Under the pieces are notes generated by a model, which made no database searches, had not been told where the DNA came from, and was given only the letters and a program-made list of their open reading frames with translations. Below, in pieces: positions 2,149 through 10,794 of a stretch of 64,000 nt of DNA. The translations under genes were made by a program, and so were the position numbers. The stretch covers positions 3,801 through 67,800 of the forward strand of contig JAJEIH010000014.1 of the NCBI GenBank assembly GCA_022827685.1, in the 5' to 3' direction. The stretch comes from Alphaproteobacteria bacterium (GTDB lineage Bacteria > Pseudomonadota > Alphaproteobacteria > Bin95). How positions within the stretch are numbered: position 1 is the stretch's first letter; the number at the start of each line of letters is the position of its first letter.

Positions 2149-4548
2149 ATGGGGGTTGTTTTCATGCGCATTCGCTATCCCGGTTGGGGCAAGGAGGCGG
2201 CAGGCAAGTCCGACTGCAAGCCGCAGACGTCAAGGCGATACGATCCAGACAGGCGGGGGTTGCGGAAAGTTCGGTTGCAGCTGGCGGGATTGCCGACGCT
2301 GCTGTTCCTTTCGCTTGCGTTCTGGGCTCCTCCTCCGCTCGCCCCGGAAGTTATGGCGGCCGCCGGGAACGCCACCGGCAAGCCGGCCGTTTCGAGCGAC
2401 TCGATTGCCGGAAGGGGTTATCGGGCCACGGCGACGCTCGGCGATGTCGCAGACCGCGACGGGATCGATGCCGTGACGCTGAACTACACCTGGCTGCGAT
2501 GCAATGCGAACGGCTCCGGTTGCAACACCGAGATCGTGACGGGCGCGAGCTATACCCTGACCGAGGACGATGTCGGCTTGCGGCTCAGGCTGCGGCTCGA
2601 TTTTCTGGATGAGGATGGCGCGTCCGAATCGCTCACGAGCTTTCCCTGGCCTTCCCGCGCCAACAATCCGATCGGCACGCCGCCTGCGCCGGCCGCGCTG
2701 CAGGTGCTCGGGCACCGGCTGGACCTGACCTTCGACCATGACCTGCAGTCCGGCTCCGTTCCTCCGGCGAGCGCATTCGCGGTCGAGGTGGACGGCCAGG
2801 CGATGCCGGTTGTCGGGATTCACAAGTCTGGTGACCGCACTCTCCGCCTCACGCTGGCGCGGCGGGTGGCGCCGGACGCGACCGTGACAGTCGGCTATAC
2901 CCGGCCCTCCGGCGGGGAAGCGCAGGAAATACGAGGCCCCGGAGGGGTGCCGGCAGAGTCCTTCGCAGCCCTCGGCGTCAGCAATGTCACGCCCGAGAAC
3001 CAGGTCGCCGCGGGCGCGCCGGAGATAGAAGTCGTCAGCATTGCCGACAACGAGATTGTCCTGAGACTGCATGCGCCGGCGGACAATGGCGGTCTGACCG
3101 TCACCGGCTACCAGTACCGTTACGCCAGGGGGGCATCGGTGCCGGAGGCGACGGCATGGACCGACGCCGCGACGACGGCGGTCACGATTTCGGGCCTGCG
3201 CAACAGCACGGAATACACGGTCGAAGCACGGGCGGCGACCGGTCAGGGCACGGGTCCGGCGGCGAGCAGGGCGGCGACGACCACATCGCTTTCGCGCAAT
3301 GCTACCGGCAAGCCCGCCGTTTCGAGCGACTCGATTGCGGGGACGGGCCACCGGGCCACGGCGACGCTCGGCGATGTTGCGGATGCCGACGGGATCGATG
3401 CCGCGACGCTGAGCTACACCTGGCTGCGCTGCAATGCGGACGGCGACGATTGCGATACCGAGATCGCGACGGGGGCGAGCTACATCCTGACCGAAGACGA
3501 TGTCGGCTTGCGGCTCAGGCTGCGGGTCGATTACCTGGACGATGCGGGCACGTTCGAATCGCGCACGGGCTTTGCCTGGCCTTCCCGCACCGACAATCCG
3601 ATCCGCACGCCTCCTGCGCCGGCCACGCTGCAAGTGCTCGGGTACCGGCTGGACCTGGCCTTCGATCAAGACCTGAAGACCGGCTCCGTTCCTCCGGCGA
3701 GCGCATTCACGGTCGAGGTGGACGGCCAGGCGGTGGCGGTCGGTGATGTCGGCATGGCAGCCGCGCGCACCGTCCGCCTCACGCTGGCGCGGCGCGTGAC
3801 GCCGGACGGGACCGTGACGGTCGGCTATACCCGGCCTTCCGGCGGGGGCGTGCGGGAAATACAGGAGCCCGGAGGGGTGCCGGCAGAGTCCTTCACGGGC
3901 CGCAGCGTCAGCAATGTCACGCCCGTGAACCAGGCCGCCACGGGGGCGCCGGACATTTCCGGTACGGCGGAACTCGGCGAGACGCTGATCGCCGGCCCGG
4001 GCACCGTCGCCGACGCGAACGGGCTCTCGGGCGCCCGCATGTCCTACCAGTGGGTCCGCGTCGACGGGAACGGGGAGACGGACATAGCCGGGGCCACCGG
4101 CGGCTCCTATTCGGTGGGCGCGGACGATGCCGGCAAGCGCCTGAAGGTGAGAGCCTCCTTCGAAGACGACGCGCTCTATCCGGAAGCGCGCACCAGCGCG
4201 GCAACGGCGGTCGTGCCCGATACGGTCGGGCCGAGGCTGCTCGGCGGCGGCGCGACCGTCGCCGGCACGGTGCTGGAGTTGCAGTTCGACGAGCCGCTCG
4301 ACACGGCGTCCCGGCCGGCGGCGAGCGTCTTTGCGGTCAGCGTCGCAGGCTCGCCGGCGAGCGTGTCGGCTGTGGCGGTGAGCGGCGACACGGTGACGCT
4401 CACGCTCGCCTCGGCGGTGGGCCGGGGCGAGAGCGTGACGCTCGGCTACGGCGACGGCGACGCACTCGCGCTATTCGGATGCGGCAGCGGTCATCCGGTC
4501 TCTCGGTGTGGATCTCGCCGCTCCGGCGTTCCGTTCGGCGAGCGTTAA
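2149..4548 (+). CDS. Adhesin pseudogene fragment 1 (N-terminal; ends in an out-of-frame tail after the frameshift)
   Basis: ORF-track frame 1. Domain content as listed for the pseudogene. The last ~25 aa (LFGCGSGHPVSRCGSRRSGVPFGER) do not match the repeat pattern and are therefore read as out-of-frame tail. Confidence 0.7.
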   Translation: MGVVFMRIRYPGWGKEAAGKSDCKPQTSRRYDPDRRGLRKVRLQLAGLPTLLFLSLAFWAPPPLAPEVMAAAGNATGKPAVSSDSIAGRGYRATATLGDVADRDGIDAVTLNYTWLRCNANGSGCNTEIVTGASYTLTEDDVGLRLRLRLDFLDEDGASESLTSFPWPSRANNPIGTPPAPAALQVLGHRLDLTFDHDLQSGSVPPASAFAVEVDGQAMPVVGIHKSGDRTLRLTLARRVAPDATVTVGYTRPSGGEAQEIRGPGGVPAESFAALGVSNVTPENQVAAGAPEIEVVSIADNEIVLRLHAPADNGGLTVTGYQYRYARGASVPEATAWTDAATTAVTISGLRNSTEYTVEARAATGQGTGPAASRAATTTSLSRNATGKPAVSSDSIAGTGHRATATLGDVADADGIDAATLSYTWLRCNADGDDCDTEIATGASYILTEDDVGLRLRLRVDYLDDAGTFESRTGFAWPSRTDNPIRTPPAPATLQVLGYRLDLAFDQDLKTGSVPPASAFTVEVDGQAVAVGDVGMAAARTVRLTLARRVTPDGTVTVGYTRPSGGGVREIQEPGGVPAESFTGRSVSNVTPVNQAATGAPDISGTAELGETLIAGPGTVADANGLSGARMSYQWVRVDGNGETDIAGATGGSYSVGADDAGKRLKVRASFEDDALYPEARTSAATAVVPDTVGPRLLGGGATVAGTVLELQFDEPLDTASRPAASVFAVSVAGSPASVSAVAVSGDTVTLTLASAVGRGESVTLGYGDGDALALFGCGSGHPVSRCGSRRSGVPFGER

Positions 4549-5008
4549 CGGCGCCTCCCTGACCGTAACCTTCAGCGAACAGCTGGGCGCTGCCGCCTCG
4601 CTTGCGAATTCTTCCTTCTCGGTGAAGAAGACGCCCGCGGGCGGCCCCGCAGAGACGGTCGCGCTGAGCGCCGACGACGCCCCGGTCATCGACGGCGCCG
4701 CGGTGACGCTCACCCTTGCATCGGCGGTGGCGTCCACCGACAGCAGCATCGAGGTGAGCTACCGCAAGCCGGGGAGTGGCTCGGACAACAAGCTTGCCGA
4801 CAGCGCCGGCAACGAGGCGGCGAGCTTCGCGGACCGGGCGGTGACCAATGTTGGCATTTCGGTTGCGGGCACACCGAGGGTCACGGTTCCGAACGTGTTC
4901 CGGGTGCCGGCAAGGCTCGGCGTCGACCTGGGTTCCGTCAGGGGAACCGAAGGCCTTGGCGCGGCTCGTTATCAGTGGATCCGGGTGGATGCCGACGGCG
5001 CATCAAAC
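4442..5008 (+). CDS. Adhesin pseudogene fragment 2 (frame +1 relative to fragment 1; truncated at the IS left end)
   Basis: Frame 2 reads ...VDLAAPAFRSASVNGASLTVTFSEQLG...TLTLASAVASTDSSIEVSYRKPGSGSDNKLADSAGNEAASFADRAVTN...ARYQWIRVDADGAS. This parallels the module in the downstream fragment (TALTVTFSEELG...TLTLASAIVSTDSGIAVSYTAPDTGSGNRLADRFGNE...). Confidence 0.6.
5001..5008 (+). repeat. Target-site duplication, left copy (CATCAAAC)
   Basis: An identical 8-mer immediately flanks both inverted repeats of the IS (5001-5008 and 8018-8025). 8 bp is the duplication size expected for the IS1595 family. Confidence 0.7.
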
Positions 5009-5035
5009 GGGACTTATATACCAAAATGCCATTTT
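5009..5035 (+). repeat. IS left terminal inverted repeat (IRL)
   Basis: See mobile_element entry. Confidence 0.7.
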
Positions 5036-5039
5036 GTTG

Positions 5040-5068
5040 TTGACACTCGCCCCGGCCCGTCATACATT
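5040..5068 (+). promoter_or_regulatory. Sigma70-type promoter inside the IS left arm (TTGACA-17 bp-TACATT) driving the transposase operon; GGAGGG RBS at 5080-5085
   Basis: Consensus -35 hexamer, 17-bp spacer and a -10-like hexamer, 24 bp upstream of the transposase ATG. Confidence 0.45.
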
Positions 5069-5091
5069 AGTGCCAATACGGAGGGCGAGAC

Positions 5092-6084
5092 ATGGCACGC
5101 AAGGGACCGGGCAAGGCATTCAGGGAAGGCATCAGCCTCAAGGCGCTGATGCGAATGTTCCCGACCGACGATGCGGCGCGGGAGTGGTTTGAAGGGCATA
5201 TCTGGCCGCAGGGTCCGTATTGCCCGCGTTGCGGCAGCTTCAATGTCCAGTGCGGCATCAAGCACAAGACGATGACGCACCGCTGCCGCGACTGCGAAGG
5301 CAAGCCGCGTTTCAGCCTCAAGACCGGCAATGTCATGGAGGGTTCCAAGCTCGGCTACCAGACATGGGCCATCGCCTTCTATCTCGCCATGACCGGCTTG
5401 AAGGGCGTCTCGTCCATGAAGCTGCATCGGGACTTGGAGATTACGCAGAAATCGGCGTGGCACCTTTCGCACCGCATCCGCAAGGCGATGGAGAACGGCG
5501 AGGTTCCGATGTTCCACGGCCCGGCGGAAGCCGATGAGACCTACATCGGCGGCAAGCGCAAGAACATGAGCAACCGGAAGCGGAAAGAGCTGGCCGGGAC
5601 GGGTCGCGGGGCCGTGGGCAAGGCGGCCGTCGCGGGCGTGAAGGACCGGGAGACGAACAAGGTCGCGGCGCGGCGGATGGAAGAGACCGACGCGAGCGCG
5701 CTCCAGTCCTTTGTCCGGGAGCATGTCGAGCCGGGCGCAACGCTCTACACCGATGAAGCCGCCGCCTATGCGGGAATGCCCGAATACGACCATGAAGCGG
5801 TCAAGCACTCGGCCAAGGAGTTCGTGCGGGGCATGGCCTCGACGAATGGCATGGAGAGCTTCTGGGCCGGTCTCAAGCGCGGTTTCGTCGGCACTTTCCA
5901 CAAGTTCAGCGAAAAGCACTTGAGCCTGTATGTCGCGGAGTTCGCGGCCCGGCACAATATCCGCGACAAGGACACAATCGACATGATGGGCGCGGTTGCC
6001 CGGCGCGCAGTCGGAACCCGCCTCCGCTATCGTGACCTCATTGCCGACAATGGCCTGCCGTCCGGCGCAAGGCCCGCCGCATGA
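5092..6084 (+). CDS. IS1595-family (ISXO2-like) transposase
   Basis: N-terminal zinc ribbon (CPRCG...C..C), DDE-type ISXO2-like domain, and the conserved ...NGMESFWAGLKRG... motif typical of IS1595-family transposases. Confidence 0.85.
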   Translation: MARKGPGKAFREGISLKALMRMFPTDDAAREWFEGHIWPQGPYCPRCGSFNVQCGIKHKTMTHRCRDCEGKPRFSLKTGNVMEGSKLGYQTWAIAFYLAMTGLKGVSSMKLHRDLEITQKSAWHLSHRIRKAMENGEVPMFHGPAEADETYIGGKRKNMSNRKRKELAGTGRGAVGKAAVAGVKDRETNKVAARRMEETDASALQSFVREHVEPGATLYTDEAAAYAGMPEYDHEAVKHSAKEFVRGMASTNGMESFWAGLKRGFVGTFHKFSEKHLSLYVAEFAARHNIRDKDTIDMMGAVARRAVGTRLRYRDLIADNGLPSGARPAA

Positions 6085-7511
6085 CGGCCCCGAATTTCGC
6101 GTCCGGCACAGTCTGGACCGGCGACAACCTCCCCATCCTTCGCGGCATGAATTCGGAGTGCGTGGACCTCATCTATCTGGACCCGCCCTTCAACAGCAAT
6201 CGGGACTATGCCGCCCCGATTGGGAGCGAAGCGGCCGGGGCAGCGTTCAAGGACACTTGGACGCTCTCCGATGTTGATGTGCATGAGCATGGGGAGCTTG
6301 CCGACAGGAATCCGGCCGCATACGCGGTGATCGAGGCCGCCCGGCAGGCGCACGGCAAAGGGATGCAGGCATATTGCATCATGATGGCGGTGCGCCTCAT
6401 GGAAATGCGCCGAGTGCTCAAGCCTACGGGCGCGATCTACCTCCATTGCGACCCGACGGCCGCCCACTACCTCAAGCTGCTGCTCGACGGGATATTCGGG
6501 CGCGGCAATTTCCAAGCGGCAATCACATGGCGGCGCACCTACGCGCACAATGACAAGATGTTCGGCAGCCTGTCCGAACAGATCCTCTGGTATGGCAATG
6601 GCGATGGGATCACGCGGAACATTGATGCTGTCGTGGTCCCGTTTTCAGCCGACGAACTCAAGAAGAAATATCCGCACCGGGATAAACGCGGGCAGCATTT
6701 ACGCGACAATCTCATGGGGCCGGGAACAACGGACGGGGAAAGCGGCAGGGCATGGAAGGGCTGCGACCCTACGGAATACGGAAGATGCTGGAGCGCGCCG
6801 AAGACCGGCAAATACGCCCGCTATCTCAACGAAGTGCTGTTGCCCGGCTATCTGGCAATCGAGGGCGTCCATGACCGGCTGAATGCACTGGACGACGCGG
6901 GCTTTATCCACTGGACGAACACCGGCGTTCCGCTGCTCAAGCGGTATGTCATGCCGGGACAGGGGACGGTTCCAGGCGACATATGGACGGACGTTCCGCC
7001 GCTGTCGCGCTCCACAAAGGAACGGACGGGCTATCCGACGCAGAAACCGCTCGCCCTGCTTGAGCGCATCATCCGGGCGTCGAGCAATCCCGGCGGCCTG
7101 GTGCTCGACCCGTTCTGCGGTTGTGCAACGGCCCTGGTGGCGGCGGACAGGCTGCAACGGCAGTGGGCGGGGGTCGACCTGTCGCCGCTCGCCGTGAAGC
7201 TGGTGGACGAGCGGATCGCCGGGGACCGCGGCCTGTGGGGCGGTGCGACCGTCCCTGACGCCCCGCCAGTGCGAACCGACCTTGGCGAGCTTCCGAACTA
7301 CCGCACGCACCGGCATCGGCTCTATGGCGAGCAGGAGGGCGTATGCGTCGGGTGCGAGACGCATTTCCCGTTCCGCGTCATGGAGGTGGACCACATTCTG
7401 CCCCGGTCGCGCGGCGGGACCGACCATGCCGACAACCTTCAACTGCTCTGTTCCGGCTGCAACCGCAGCAAGGGCGGGCGCACAATGGCCGAATGGAGGG
7501 CCGCAACATGA
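6081..7511 (+). CDS. DNA methyltransferase (beta-class N6-adenine/N4-cytosine type) fused to a C-terminal HNH endonuclease domain; IS passenger gene
   Basis: Motif IV DPPF (LIYLDPPFNSN) near the N-terminus precedes motif I FxGxG (LVLDPFCGCATALVAA), which is the beta-class order. The C-terminal ~70 aa carry an HNH signature (CVGCE...HILPRSRGGTDHADNLQLLCSGCNRSKG). ATGA overlap with the transposase stop. Confidence 0.85.
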   Translation: MTAPNFASGTVWTGDNLPILRGMNSECVDLIYLDPPFNSNRDYAAPIGSEAAGAAFKDTWTLSDVDVHEHGELADRNPAAYAVIEAARQAHGKGMQAYCIMMAVRLMEMRRVLKPTGAIYLHCDPTAAHYLKLLLDGIFGRGNFQAAITWRRTYAHNDKMFGSLSEQILWYGNGDGITRNIDAVVVPFSADELKKKYPHRDKRGQHLRDNLMGPGTTDGESGRAWKGCDPTEYGRCWSAPKTGKYARYLNEVLLPGYLAIEGVHDRLNALDDAGFIHWTNTGVPLLKRYVMPGQGTVPGDIWTDVPPLSRSTKERTGYPTQKPLALLERIIRASSNPGGLVLDPFCGCATALVAADRLQRQWAGVDLSPLAVKLVDERIAGDRGLWGGATVPDAPPVRTDLGELPNYRTHRHRLYGEQEGVCVGCETHFPFRVMEVDHILPRSRGGTDHADNLQLLCSGCNRSKGGRTMAEWRAAT

Positions 7512-7696
7512 CCGACAAGCCGCCCTTTGAGCGCCGGGAGCTTCGCGTGAAGCCGAACCGATACCAGCCGACCAAGGCGGAGGTGGAGGAAGTCTTCACG
7601 CCGCCGCGCAAGGCCGACGGCACGGCCTACACCGTCAACGAGGCCGTGCGGACACTCCTGCGGCCCGTGACGGTCGTGGAAGACCCGAAGGCATAG
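7508..7696 (+). CDS. Small hypothetical protein (62 aa; MTDKPPFERRELRVKPNRYQPTKAEVEEVFTPP...), third gene of the IS operon
   Basis: ATGA overlap with the methyltransferase-HNH stop (translational coupling). No recognisable domain. Confidence 0.4.
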   Translation: MTDKPPFERRELRVKPNRYQPTKAEVEEVFTPPRKADGTAYTVNEAVRTLLRPVTVVEDPKA

Positions 7697-7912
7697 CGGG
7701 GCGGCTCTTTGTCGGTGGAGACCGCCTATGCGCCTTCACGCGCACAGTCTTCGGCCCCGGCTTCTTCGCGGTTCGGACGGGTTTGCAGCGGGTCTTGGCC
7801 ATGCCAGCCTCCGGCTTGCGAGCGGAGGCCGATTGACGCTACGGTTCGGGCGGCGGTATCCTTCGCCCTTAGCGCGCTGTCCGCATCGGCCCTCCAAGGA
7901 CTTGCGGAGCCT

Positions 7913-7941
7913 CGCCCCGGTCGTTTGCCGCGACCGGGGCG
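7913..7941 (+). terminator. Perfect 11-bp GC-rich hairpin (CGCCCCGGTCG-N7-CGACCGGGGCG) in the noncoding right arm of the IS; possible terminator or RNA-stabilising structure
   Basis: Inverted repeat read directly from the sequence. No U-tract, so intrinsic-terminator function is uncertain. Confidence 0.3.
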
Positions 7942-7990
7942 AAGTGCATCTAGGCCGGACTATCGCCGATTCGGTCTATGTCGTCAAGCG

Positions 7991-8017
7991 AAAGTGGCAC
8001 TTTCGTATATAATCCCC
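7991..8017 (+). repeat. IS right terminal inverted repeat (IRR)
   Basis: See mobile_element entry. Confidence 0.7.
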
Positions 8018-8025
8018 CATCAAAC
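8018..8025 (+). repeat. Target-site duplication, right copy (CATCAAAC)
   Basis: See the left-copy entry. Confidence 0.7.
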
Positions 8026-10794
8026 CCGGTGAACGTCGGGACGGGCGCGACATACAGGCTCGCTGACGCGGATGCGGGCAAGCGGATCAAGGTGGAGGTG
8101 AGCTACGGAAACGCCACGGTCGGCAGCGCAGCCTGGCCCTCCAGCGGGAGTGTCCGCAGCCGCGAACGCTGCAATGCGCCGGTCCTGTCCGGAGGGGCCG
8201 TGCTGGTCGGATCCGGCAGGACGCTTGCAGTCGGGTCGTACAGCAACAACGAAGGCGACTACTGGGGATATTACGAGGGTGGAAGGACCGGCTTCGGCGA
8301 ACTGGTTTCAGGGGTCAGCTTTGGCGAACTGGGGGACGCCTCGTTCTCGATCGGCGGCGCCGACTATGAGCTGAAAGCGGTCGCAAGCGCCGACAGACCC
8401 GGCGGCGAAGTAGAGATGTACGCCATGCTGGACAAGGACCTTCCGGCCGATCACCGGAGGACGCTGAAGCTGCATGTCTGCGGAGTGGCATACGCTTTCG
8501 GCAAGGCGACGAAGCATGACACCCATGCTCAGTACCAATGGCCCACTTTCCTGGGCCTGGCAGGAAGCGCCGAGCCCACGATCTACCTCTCCCGCGATGC
8601 GGTCGCGCCGACTGTCACTTCGGCCACGGCGCACGGCACGGCGCTGACCGTCACCTTCAGCGAAGAACTGGGCGCGGCCGACTCGCTTTCGAATGCTGCC
8701 TTCTCGGTTGTCAGGACGCCCGAGGGTGGCAGCGAGGAGGCGGTCGCGCTGAGCGCCGACGCCGCCCCGTCCATCGACGGCGCCACGGTGACGCTGACGC
8801 TCGCCTCGGCGATCGTATCCACCGACAGCGGCATCGCGGTGAGCTATACCGCGCCCGACACAGGCAGCGGAAACAGGCTTGCCGACAGGTTCGGCAACGA
8901 GGTCGCGGGCTTTGCGGGCCGGGCGGTGTCGCATGGGACCGCCGACGCGATCCCCGGGCTTTCGGTCGCCGACGCCCAGGTGCGGGAGGGTCGGGGCGCG
9001 AAGCTTGTCTTCACGGTCAGGCTCGACCGGGCGCGCGAGACGCATGTGAGGGTGGATTACGCGACCCGCGACGACACGGCGGTGGCGGGCGCGGATTATA
9101 TGGCCAGGTCGGGCACGCTCACCTTTGCCCGGGGCCAGACCAGAAAGACGGTCGAAGTCACAGTCCTGGACGACGCGCACGACGAGGGCAGCGAGACGAT
9201 GACGTTTGCGCTTTCGAACGCCAGAGGCGCGCGAATCGCCAATGGCGAGGCGACGGGGACGATCAGCAATTCGGACCCGCTGCAGAAACTATGGCTCGCG
9301 CGCTTCGGGCGCACTGTGGCCTCCCAGACGGTCGAGGCTCTGGAGGGGCGTTTCGCCATCGCGTCGGACGCCTCGCCGCGCATGACGCTGACGATAGCGG
9401 GCCAGACCGTGGACCTCTCGCGGATCGGCGACGGTCAGGCGCTGGCGGGGACGCTGACAGGCCTTGCGCGGGCGTTCGGCGCGCCGGACGTCTCGGCGGC
9501 GAACGACAACAGGCCGTTCGCGCGGCGCGGTATCGGTGGGGCGTGGAACGAAGCCGGCGTCTCGGCGCCGGCGCGCGGGATGACGGCGCGCGAGCTTCTG
9601 TCCGGGAGTTCGTTCCACTTCACGACCGGAGATGCGTCGGGCCTGGGCGGAGCGATGACCGGTTGGGGCAAGGTGCTGTCGGGCGGGTCGAGCAGTTCGC
9701 TGTCCGGCGGGCTGTCGTTGGCGAGCGAGACGGCGACCGGCGTGCTCGGCATGGACTGGGAGCGGGACAGGCTTCTGGTCGGGGTGGCGCTGTCGCGAAG
9801 CGTCGAGACGGGCAGCGCGTCGTTTGCGCCGACGGGGTCGCAATACGACATCGAGGGCTCGGTTTCGATGGTGACGCCCTACATGCGCGTGCGGGCGGGC
9901 GAGCGGCTGTCGCTCTGGAGCGCGGTCGGTTCGGGCAGCGGTTCCTTGTCGCTCTCGCATGGCGGCGGCTCGCAGATTGCGGACATCGCCATGCGGCTTG
10001 CGGCTGCGGGCGGTCGTGCGGAGTTGCTGCGGCCCGGGGCAGGCGGCGGGTTTGCGCTGGCGCTGAAGACGGATGCGTTCTTTGTGCGGAGCGAATCGGC
10101 GCGGGTATCGACGCCGGGCGTGGGCAACCTCGCGGCGGCGACGGGCGATGCGAGCCGTGTGCGGGCGGTGATGGAAGGGTCGCGGGCGTTCGCGCTGTCG
10201 GGCGGCGGCGCGCTGGAGCCGTCGCTGTCGCTCGGTCTGCGCCATGACGGCGGCGACGCCGAGACCGGCACGGGCGTCGAGGTCGGCGCCGGGCTTTCGT
10301 GGTCCGCGCCGACGGCGGGGTTGACCTCGGACCTGCGCCTTTACGGGCTGGCGTCGCACGAGGCGGGCGGTTACGACGAATGGGGGGCGAGCGGTTCGCT
10401 GCGGCTGGCGCCGGATCCGTCCGGTCGCGGCCTGTCGCTGTCGATGACGCCGTCATGGGGCGCCCGGGAACAGGCCGGGCGGCTGTGGGGCGCGGCGCCC
10501 GGCGCATTGGCCGGGAACGGCGGCGGGGGGCAGCCGGGCGGGCGCCTCGACACGGAACTCGGCTACGGCCTGCCCCTGTCGCACGGCATGACCGGCACGC
10601 CCTATGCGGGCTTCGGGTTCGGCGAGGCCGGCGCCCGGAGTTACCGCCTCGGCTGGCGGCTTGCGTCGGACCGGCTGCAATCCTTCTCCCTGGACATCGA
10701 GACGACCCGCCGCGAAGCCGCAAACGCCGCCGGACCGGGGTTCGGGGCGGCGGCAGAGCACGGTATCGGTCTCAGGCTGGCGGCCCGCTGGTAG
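8026..10794 (+). CDS. Adhesin pseudogene fragment 3 (C-terminal passenger + Calx-beta + autotransporter beta-barrel)
   Basis: In frame with the CCG GTG AAC that follows the right target duplication. Calx-beta signature. ~500-aa Gly/Ser-rich beta-domain ending in W. Confidence 0.75.
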   Translation, partial: PVNVGTGATYRLADADAGKRIKVEVSYGNATVGSAAWPSSGSVRSRERCNAPVLSGGAVLVGSGRTLAVGSYSNNEGDYWGYYEGGRTGFGELVSGVSFGELGDASFSIGGADYELKAVASADRPGGEVEMYAMLDKDLPADHRRTLKLHVCGVAYAFGKATKHDTHAQYQWPTFLGLAGSAEPTIYLSRDAVAPTVTSATAHGTALTVTFSEELGAADSLSNAAFSVVRTPEGGSEEAVALSADAAPSIDGATVTLTLASAIVSTDSGIAVSYTAPDTGSGNRLADRFGNEVAGFAGRAVSHGTADAIPGLSVADAQVREGRGAKLVFTVRLDRARETHVRVDYATRDDTAVAGADYMARSGTLTFARGQTRKTVEVTVLDDAHDEGSETMTFALSNARGARIANGEATGTISNSDPLQKLWLARFGRTVASQTVEALEGRFAIASDASPRMTLTIAGQTVDLSRIGDGQALAGTLTGLARAFGAPDVSAANDNRPFARRGIGGAWNEAGVSAPARGMTARELLSGSSFHFTTGDASGLGGAMTGWGKVLSGGSSSSLSGGLSLASETATGVLGMDWERDRLLVGVALSRSVETGSASFAPTGSQYDIEGSVSMVTPYMRVRAGERLSLWSAVGSGSGSLSLSHGGGSQIADIAMRLAAAGGRAELLRPGAGGGFALALKTDAFFVRSESARVSTPGVGNLAAATGDASRVRAVMEGSRAFALSGGGALEPSLSLGLRHDGGDAETGTGVEVGAGLSWSAPTAGLTSDLRLYGLASHEAGGYDEWGASGSLRLAPDPSGRGLSLSMTPSWGAREQAGRLWGAAPGALAGNGGGGQPGGRLDTELGYGLPLSHGMTGTPYAGFGFGEAGARSYRLGWRLASDRLQSFSLDIETTRREAANAAGPGFGAAAEHGIGLRLAARW

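Follow-up and report, generated by a model that had tools for sequence, protein, structure and literature searches.

The 64-kb window analyzed here, part of contig JAJEIH010000014.1 from an alphaproteobacterial assembly (GCA_022827685.1), contains an intact 3009-bp insertion sequence (IS) of the IS1595 family with passenger genes at 5009–8017. All coordinates are positions in this window, features lie on the forward strand unless noted, and L numbers denote comparison loci or contigs. The cargo gene (6081–7511) encodes a 476-amino-acid (aa) protein in which a DNA methyltransferase of the beta class is joined to an HNH nuclease (MTase-HNH). We consider this protein to be, on balance, a probable single-polypeptide restriction-modification (R-M) cargo on a transporter IS. 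The N-terminal beta-class methylase, which resembles the Mod subunit of Type III systems, would recognize a short DNA motif through a variable target recognition domain (TRD) and modify that motif, most likely at adenine N6, which would protect the chromosome of the host. At the C-terminus, the tethered HNH domain would cut DNA in which the motif is unmethylated, such as phage or other incoming DNA, and would also cut the host chromosome after loss of the element. On an IS, a protein of this kind would defend the host and penalize loss of the element. This reading is the best supported because the slot that the gene occupies is taken in sister elements by classical R-M systems of Types II and III and by parts of toxin-antitoxin systems, because both domains keep their catalytic residues while the recognition insert varies, and because the closest cultured relatives of the methylase carry an Mrr_cat nuclease in place of the HNH domain.

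The methylase-HNH protein

Pfam, NCBIfam, PDB matches, alignments, and an AlphaFold2 (AF2) model were used to assign the domains of the fused protein. The methyltransferase domain covers residues 28–374 (6162–7202; PF01555, N6_N4_Mtase, 7.4e-39). It carries motif IV, DPPF, at residues 34–37 (6180–6191), a PTQKP motif at residues 319–323 (7035–7049), and motif I, DPFCGCAT, at residues 343–350 (7107–7130). The order of motif IV, then PTQKP, then motif I is the circular permutation of the beta class. A variable, TRD-like insert occupies residues ~141–313. Following the methylase, a conserved linker of ~25 aa (residues 396–419, predicted with low confidence) leads to an HNH nuclease domain at residues 420–468 (7338–7484) with the arrangement CxxC...D437-H438...N452...CxxC-N461...K464. 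Pfam matches to this domain within residues 422–470 are PF01844 (1e-11, at residues 422–465) and PF14279 (1.2e-11), and its zinc-ligand pairs are CVGC (422–425) and CSGC (457–460).

Conservation of these motifs was assessed in two alignments, one of 185 family members and one of 73 database homologs. DPPF, PTQKP, DPFCGCAT, C422/C425, D437-H438, N452, C457/C460, N461, and K464 are fully or almost fully conserved in both. An earlier note on this DNA had placed the protein among the beta-class amino-methyltransferases by its motifs and had proposed a C-terminal HNH domain. That motif IV precedes motif I agrees with this assignment, but the FxGxG given for motif I reads FxGxA: its core is F-C-G-C-A (residues 345–349, nucleotides 7113–7127), with alanine rather than the canonical glycine in the last position, as in 73/73 relatives. 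Degeneration of the methylase motifs, which the same note had raised as a concern, was not seen, as DPPF and motif I are invariant in the 185 and the 73 homologs. The HNH assignment is upheld by Pfam, by invariant catalytic and zinc-binding residues, and by a beta-beta-alpha unit in the AF2 model.

Sequence conservation is uneven along the protein. Mean pairwise identity is 75% in the N-terminal methylase core, 41% in the insert (residues 141–313), 71% in the C-terminal methylase core, and 74% in both the linker and the HNH domain. To judge by these values, a conserved catalytic frame is combined with a fast-changing recognition module, which is the pattern expected of R-M enzymes that diversify their specificity. 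The AF2 model (predicted local distance difference test [pLDDT] 82.4, predicted TM-score 0.75) contains a methylase core, a large insert, a linker, and an HNH domain. Linker residues 404–417 have pLDDT values <50, and the beta-beta-alpha HNH secondary structure lies at residues 434–464.

The best Foldseek matches in the PDB are EcoP15I Mod, a Helicobacter Mod, M.BceJIV, RsrI, CcrM, and M.MboIIA (E values of 1e-13 to 1e-17). The match to the EcoP15I Mod structure (4zcf, E about 1e-17) covers the methylase including the insert. A PDB search at the sequence level gave a consistent result for the methylase, with matches to M.BceJIV, RsrI, CcrM, MboIIA, and EcoP15I Mod, and matched the C-terminal tail to the HNH segments of Cas9, McrA, and a group II intron maturase. 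MTase_III models of PADLOC also match the methylase. Because motif IV is DPPF and the nearest solved relatives are N6-adenine enzymes, the methylated base would most likely be adenine N6.

Two further assignments were considered and rejected. A complete Type III R-M system was rejected, as the element contains no Res or helicase gene and the protein has no TypeIII_RM_meth domain. An NCBIfam HNH match to Cas9d/IscB spans residues 402–475 only, and kinship with IscB or Cas9 was rejected because the resemblance is limited to this HNH segment, without RuvC, an Rfam match, or a structured spacer RNA.

The state of the gene bears on two other explanations. It could be a decaying passenger without current function, as related copies are frameshifted or split at six loci (L025, L037, L043, L045, L073, and L077). 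We regard this as very unlikely for the window copy, which is full length, has every catalytic residue intact, is 100% identical across four contigs, and has a GC content at third codon positions similar to that of the host gene it interrupts, in a family that is under strong purifying selection outside the TRD. Alternatively, the methylase could be of a protective or orphan type, with an epigenetic function or one in guarding the DNA of the element or the host against other R-M systems. The HNH domain would then serve a purpose other than restriction: it could bind DNA, mediate dimerization, act as a nickase in repair, or, as a Type IV-like enzyme that depends on modification, attack DNA with foreign methylation patterns. 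Solitary methylase genes are common on mobile elements (PMC2853133), HNH domains fused to reader domains are known as Type IV enzymes (PMC12707154), and the Mrr_cat fold carried by relatives is also that of modification-dependent enzymes. However, the invariance of the HNH catalytic residues and zinc ligands in aligned homologs argues for an active nuclease, no modified-base reader domain is recognizable in the 476-aa protein, and classical pairs of restriction and modification genes occupy the same slot in sister ISs. We therefore think a protective or orphan-type role quite improbable.

The element and its cargo slot

The element is bounded by terminal inverted repeats (IRs) of 27 nt at 5009–5035 (IRL, GGGACTTATATACCAAAATGCCATTTT) and, on the reverse strand, at 7991–8017 (IRR, reverse complement GGGGATTATATACGAAAGTGCCACTTT). 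The two are imperfect (81% complementary) and bracket all three genes. Their consensus occurs twice in the 64-kb window, at the two ends of the element, with a chance expectation of 0. An 8-bp target-site duplication, CATCAAAC, is present at 5001–5008 and again, with 8/8 identity, at 8018–8025. When 5009–8025 is deleted in silico, the flanking open reading frames (ORFs) are joined in one open frame with the junction ...YQWIRVDADGASNPVNVGTGATYRLADADAGKRIKVEV...; sequence 4508–5008 joined to 8026 onward reads ...YQWIRVDADGASNPVNVGTGATYRLADADAGKRIKVEVSY... and matches the repeat motif of the host gene. These IRs, the 8/8 duplication, and the restored host ORF identify a 3009-bp IS that was recently inserted. 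Two contigs from the same samples (L083 and L084) match the window up to 8017 and diverge exactly after it, which confirms the right end and indicates at least one further insertion context. The GC content is 63.8% in the element and 69–70% in the flanks. The ends of the element, GGGACTTAT and GGGGATTAT, fit the pattern GGnnaTTAT, that of the ISNwi1 subgroup in ISfinder, and may place the element there. A megablast search with the whole IS against 72,556 plasmids gave no match.

The interrupted gene encodes a giant surface protein with SWM_repeat and Calx-beta domains (Pfam). Its 5' part lies at 2149–5008 and it resumes at 8026–10794; the two halves appear as separate ORFs solely through the IS insertion. 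Split in this way by the IS, the gene has probably lost its function in this copy of the genome.

The first gene of the element (5092–6084) encodes a 330-aa IS1595-family DDE transposase with an N-terminal zinc ribbon. It matches PF12762 (DDE_Tnp_IS1595, 5.4e-36), PF12760 (Zn_ribbon_IS1595, 2.8e-09), and NCBIfam NF033547 (1.7e-51); a protein-mode search of the same plasmids gave identities of ≤39%. The stop codon of the transposase and the start codon of the methylase-nuclease gene overlap as ATGA at 6081–6084, and the stop of the latter overlaps the start of a 62-aa ORF in the same manner at 7508–7511. The start codons of the transposase and the 62-aa ORF are each preceded, at a distance of 8 nt, by a GGAGG ribosome-binding site. 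A predicted sigma-70-like promoter, TTGACA-17-TACATT (5040–5068, 10/12 consensus matches), is located inward of IRL and upstream of the transposase. It is the best promoter-like match of the region, where three sites were found versus 0.3 expected. All three genes are probably transcribed from this left-end promoter, and the ATGA overlaps at both junctions suggest that their translation is coupled. The passenger status of the fused gene, both overlaps, and the promoter-like site had been proposed in the earlier note. The first is borne out by the transposase domains, IRs, and 8-bp duplication, and the other two were confirmed in the sequence.

Comparison with related elements points to a lineage with a common layout of left IR, transposase, cargo slot, small ORF, and right IR. 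Thirteen related elements have perfect 8-bp duplications and ends of the form GGG(G/A)(A/C)TTATA... like those of the window element. In L089 (2349–6863), a transposase 68% identical to that of the window is followed by a DPPH methylase-like gene, an Eco29kI-type Type II restriction endonuclease gene (RE_Eco29kI, Pfam 1.3e-54; REase_II, PADLOC 1.4e-39), a 96-aa ORF, and the small ORF. L090 (2577–5405) has a transposase 78% identical to that of the window, an NPPF methylase-like gene, a 220-aa gene, and the small ORF, and L091 (1992–4860) has a methylase-like gene homologous to that of L089 plus a second cargo ORF. A 6008-bp element, L103 (583–6590), holds a Type III Mod gene (PADLOC 5.6e-188) and a ResIII gene in the slot. 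Toxin-antitoxin parts were also identified: the slot of L092 (5996–6746) contains a gene with a SocA/Panacea antitoxin domain and a 110-aa partner, and in L007 (6657–8097) a PIN-domain gene stands beside a 313-aa ORF, downstream of MTase-HNH and the small ORF. The slot of L096 holds two unannotated genes. The unannotated 220-aa protein of L090 has a D...EIK motif and is possibly a PD-ExK protein.

The slot can also be empty. L108 (4556–6516) is a cargo-free IS of 1961 bp, with a transposase, a 56-aa small ORF abutting the right IR, and the duplication TTGAGTAA; it is presumed to be the basic form of the lineage. Perfect 8-bp target duplications without an HNH gene are present in L108, L089, L090, L091, L095, and L096. 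The similarities of transposase and cargo disagree: in L086 the transposase is 52% and MTase-HNH 71% identical to the window proteins, and L090, at 78% in the transposase, has different cargo. On this evidence from sequence comparison, cargo has evidently been exchanged between IS backbones. That sister ISs have R-M or toxin-antitoxin genes where this element has MTase-HNH lends comparative support to the addiction or defense-like module suggested in the earlier note.

The third gene, the 62-aa ORF (7508–7696), had been counted as part of the methylase module, an assignment that the sister elements contradict. It has no match in Pfam, NCBIfam, PADLOC, or PHROGs. Its 19 database homologs are 67%–88% identical with conservative substitutions, and we therefore regard it as a real coding gene. 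A profile search of 1.84 billion proteins gave 64 clusters, all of stand-alone proteins of 34–141 aa, with no informative fusions, and its AF2 model is of low confidence (pLDDT 66) with two short helices. The same small ORF occurs at the right end of sister ISs. Because it is found there with other cargo and in the cargo-free IS, it is an accessory backbone gene of the IS lineage and not a partner of the methylase. Some variants contain an RGRP motif that resembles an AT-hook; as a guess, the product could bind the IS ends or act as a regulator.

Several features of the small ORF and its surroundings vary among copies. The conserved C-terminal peptide of MTase-HNH, ...AEWRAA (7484–7511), encodes the GGAGG ribosome-binding site of the small ORF, and in many copies it also gives rise to a further ATG upstream and in frame (a "MEGxxM" extension). 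The small ORF may thus start five codons earlier, at 7493, in some members. In two copies from one 3.2-Mb genome (L086 and L087, 4357–7913), MTase-HNH is followed by an overlapping 87-aa ORF and then by a divergent small backbone ORF of 61–65 aa, in which the motif RGRP...PDTPENIARA occurs. These two elements also contain a 115-aa ORF upstream of the transposase.

Between the small ORF and IRR lies a 294-bp spacer (7697–7990) that is not conserved in related elements, as similarity to other loci in this region is confined to the adjoining IR. The spacer has an 11-bp GC hairpin (7913–7923 and 7931–7941) with no T-run after it, and is missing from relatives whose small ORF abuts IRR (L091 and L108). 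Two weak promoter-like sites were noted in it, at 7833–7862 on the forward strand and 7987–7959 on the reverse strand. An Rfam search of 4800–8300 (E up to 1) had no match and the RNA fold of the spacer was no better than that of shuffled sequences (z = −1.08), and for these reasons the idea of a guide-like or regulatory RNA in the element was dropped. A 313-aa ORF antisense to the transposase (5014–5955, reverse strand) is rich in arginine and alanine. It is typical of the spurious ORFs of DNA with 64%–68% GC and was not counted as a gene.

Spread of the fused gene

We searched for the fusion in protein and genome databases. The protein search yielded at least 8000 significant candidates, and both domains are present in 120/120 among the matches listed. 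The earlier note had not recognized the architecture as a described IS1595 passenger, and literature searches for such a passenger gave nothing specific. The fusion itself is not rare. A scan of reference genomes produced 164 loci, of which 80 were kept. These come from Dehalococcoidia and other Chloroflexota, Alpha- and Gammaproteobacteria, Opitutaceae, Acidobacteriota, Rhodothermales, and cyanobacteria including Candidatus Synechococcus spongiarum, and the family spans at least eight phyla. Among the 72,556 plasmids there was no fused homolog; the methylase half reached ≤40% identity and never occurred with HNH.

A metagenome scan that used the transposase as query yielded contigs from Aplysina aerophoba (MKWU), Petrosia ficiformis (LXNJ), and Sarcotragus foetidus (LXNI), all of them sponges, and no contig from the paired seawater assembly (LXNH); these sample identities are from PMC5099237. 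A sponge habitat is solid for a subset of the genomes with MTase-HNH and is suggested for the rest by names of metagenome-assembled genomes (MAGs) that resemble sponge-symbiont bins.

An IS1595 transposase lies directly upstream of MTase-HNH in ~20/80 loci, and none is found within 5 kb in ~55/80. Apart from the IS1595 transposase (23 loci), no conserved neighbor of the gene was detected in the 80 loci. These counts bear on another proposal of the earlier note, that a methylation-directed nicking activity assists transposition. Under this explanation, the HNH domain would nick or cut donor or target DNA, directed by methylation, and so aid the IS1595 transposase. The gene is coupled to the transposase by the ATGA at 6081–6084, and HNH nucleases do aid some mobile elements, such as the group II intron maturases that were among the sequence matches. 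We nevertheless judge a role in transposition to be the least likely of the explanations considered and scarcely credible, because the HNH-free relatives named above transpose, as their perfect duplications indicate, and because most of the fusions have no transposase nearby. The disagreement between transposase and cargo phylogenies also stands against it.

In a neighbor-joining tree, copies of MTase-HNH with a linked transposase are interspersed with solo ones. Within one clade, which combines members of five phyla, a Dehalococcoidia copy is sister to a Synechococcus spongiarum copy. The nearest named relative (L120, from a Rhodospirillaceae MAG, 82% identity) is a solo copy, and its DNA similarity to the window ends at the ORF boundaries. 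Two further element types carry the fused gene. In L021 (3140–6476) and L062, MTase-HNH is accompanied by a P63C-domain gene and a distant IS1595 transposase (34% identical). CGGAATT ends and a perfect duplication of 8 bp, TTCTTTAA, delimit the L021 element; a search for intact ends in L062 found none. This type is presumably akin to the ISNha5 subgroup of IS1595. In L059 (4627–7386), MTase-HNH lies upstream of an IS1-family transposase (DDE_Tnp_IS1, 8.5e-9) between GGTAGTG ends with an 8/8 duplication, CAGATTTG, and this locus represents a third IS lineage with MTase-HNH cargo. A search for IRs around MTase-HNH genes that lack the IS1595 transposase gave convincing ends only for this IS1-type locus, with one further possible case (L040), and does not support solo copies as mobile cassettes. 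One Alphaproteobacteria MAG has tandem MTase-HNH genes (L010, 5001–6431 and 6672–8060), 67% and 62% identical to the window protein. The two fall in different parts of the tree and may represent two specificities side by side.

The distribution of the gene also allows for a selfish retention or homing module. The methylase would mark genomes that bear the element and the HNH domain would cut unmarked copies, such as a sister chromosome, an element-free cell, or naive alleles; loss would be punished or the gene copied by repair, and phage defense would be secondary. Such a module would be a protein-guided analog of the role of TnpB and IscB in IS200/IS605 elements. Consistent with it, the fusion has been captured by three IS lineages (the ISNwi1-like type of the window, the type of L021 and L062, and the IS1-family type of L059), transposase-linked copies are scattered in the gene tree, the DNA similarity of the solo relative L120 stops at the ORF boundaries, and toxin-antitoxin cargo occurs in the same slot of sister ISs. 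We consider a retention or homing module unlikely as an explanation distinct from R-M, since its mechanism is nearly the same as post-segregational killing by ordinary R-M systems and the two are not cleanly separate. There was also no sign of homing in the form of conserved insertion sites or flanking homology, and sister ISs persist without MTase-HNH. In its strongest form, to which we give a small chance, MTase-HNH would be a protein-only "keep-me" transposon nuclease, similar to TnpB or IscB but without RNA, in which methylation marks the holders and HNH destroys or converts unmarked DNA. This would explain both the capture of the gene by three unrelated IS lineages and its spread over at least eight phyla of sponge symbionts. 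If true, the lineage, with its small ORF and slot, would transport addiction and defense cassettes as a modular shuttle at the level of an IS.

Several points weigh against the reading that we prefer, MTase-HNH as a single-chain R-M cargo. Methylation, cleavage, their mutual exclusion, and co-transcription are all things that we infer, and the promoter and the shared transcript are predicted at the level of consensus matches. No characterized single-chain beta-MTase/HNH restriction enzyme was found in the literature searched, and the mechanism thus rests on analogy. The canonical third glycine of motif I is replaced by alanine, although the FxGxA form is probably still functional because the alanine is conserved among relatives. 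The HNH domain could be only a nickase. With nuclease and methylase in one chain and without separate control, how would a new host be protected on entry of the element? Lastly, the link to an IS appears to be facultative, because most members of the family are found outside an IS.

If MTase-HNH is an active single-chain R-M enzyme, it represents an unstudied enzyme class that joins a beta-class methylase to a C-terminal HNH domain, and its thousands of natural TRD variants would be of interest for mining new specificities or nicking enzymes. The IS lineage offers an example of defense and addiction gene exchange at the scale of an insertion sequence, via one slot between two backbone genes, and the ~60-aa backbone ORF is a candidate for a new IS accessory protein. 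Sponge microbiomes have been reported to be enriched in transposases and in R-M and toxin-antitoxin genes (PMC5099237, PMC5649159), with no mention of this vehicle; the lineage described here would be a concrete vehicle for that enrichment. These findings extend current ideas and overturn none.

Comparison with known systems

Transporter ISs (tIS) of the IS1595 family were reportedly described by Siguier, Gagnevin, and Chandler in 2009, who are said to have covered the ISNwi1+ and ISNha5 subgroups, tISCpe8, and MTnSag1. The window element resembles these tIS in its transposase with a zinc ribbon and DDE domain, its short IRs and 8-bp duplication, its passenger genes inside the IRs, and a size within 2–6 kb. 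Unlike them, it has a second backbone gene, the ~60-aa ORF, and a slot in which R-M and toxin-antitoxin modules are swapped. The IS1595 "transporter IS" with passenger genes is an established concept that is cited in PMC3129680 and PMC5704250. In literature searches that did not extend to ISfinder, REBASE, or the 2009 IS1595 paper, neither a single-chain beta-MTase/HNH enzyme nor the cargo slot or the small backbone ORF was found to have been described.

Mobile R-M units have been described by Furuta, Abe, and Kobayashi in 2010 (PMC2853133), with imperfect IRs, 8-bp duplications, and empty sites in related genomes, and the same paper cites the IS1595 work among examples of R-M or solitary methylase genes flanked by IS elements. 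The window element shares with these units the placement of R-M genes inside IRs with 8-bp duplications, and the view of R-M as mobile and selfish. Most of those units were found after transposase-linked cases had been removed, and they are two-component or Type IIG systems, whereas here the transposase is present and restriction and modification would reside in one protein.

Type IIC and IIG enzymes (such as MmeI, BpuSI, and Eco57I) use one chain for recognition, methylation, and cleavage and vary in specificity through the TRD. In the characterized single-chain R-M enzymes, a gamma-class methylase is combined with a PD-(D/E)xK nuclease at the N-terminus (PMC4081073). In contrast, the predicted nuclease here is a C-terminal HNH domain and the methylase is of the beta class and similar to Type III Mod. 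The MboII system pairs these two catalytic folds as well: PMC4081073 lists MboII as an HNH enzyme, and its partner is a beta-class N6-adenine methylase, M.MboIIA, which is both a sequence and a structure match to the window protein. In that system the HNH enzyme and the methylase are separate proteins, whereas here they are fused by the conserved ~25-aa linker. The Mod subunits of Type III systems (EcoP15I and Mbo45V) are the best structural likeness, including the insert, in agreement with the PADLOC MTase_III matches. Unlike Type III systems, the window element has no Res helicase-nuclease subunit and its nuclease is the fused HNH domain; a true Mod/Res pair is found in the slot of L103.

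The closest cultured relatives of the methylase half are proteins of 574–586 aa from Mesorhizobium japonicum pMLa (WP_044552088; L122, 3489–5213) and Cellulosimicrobium cellulans pTL2A (WP_255181437; L123, 3474–5234). Both are annotated only as "DNA methyltransferase" and have a C-terminal Mrr_cat/NA-iREase1 nuclease of the PD-(D/E)xK type. A separate Mrr_cat "restriction endonuclease" gene lies just upstream in the Cellulosimicrobium plasmid. The methylase half of these proteins is 40% identical to that of MTase-HNH over residues 11–384 and is likewise followed by a nuclease. They differ from the window protein in that Mrr_cat takes the place of HNH and in that the genes, in the regions inspected, are not inside an IS.

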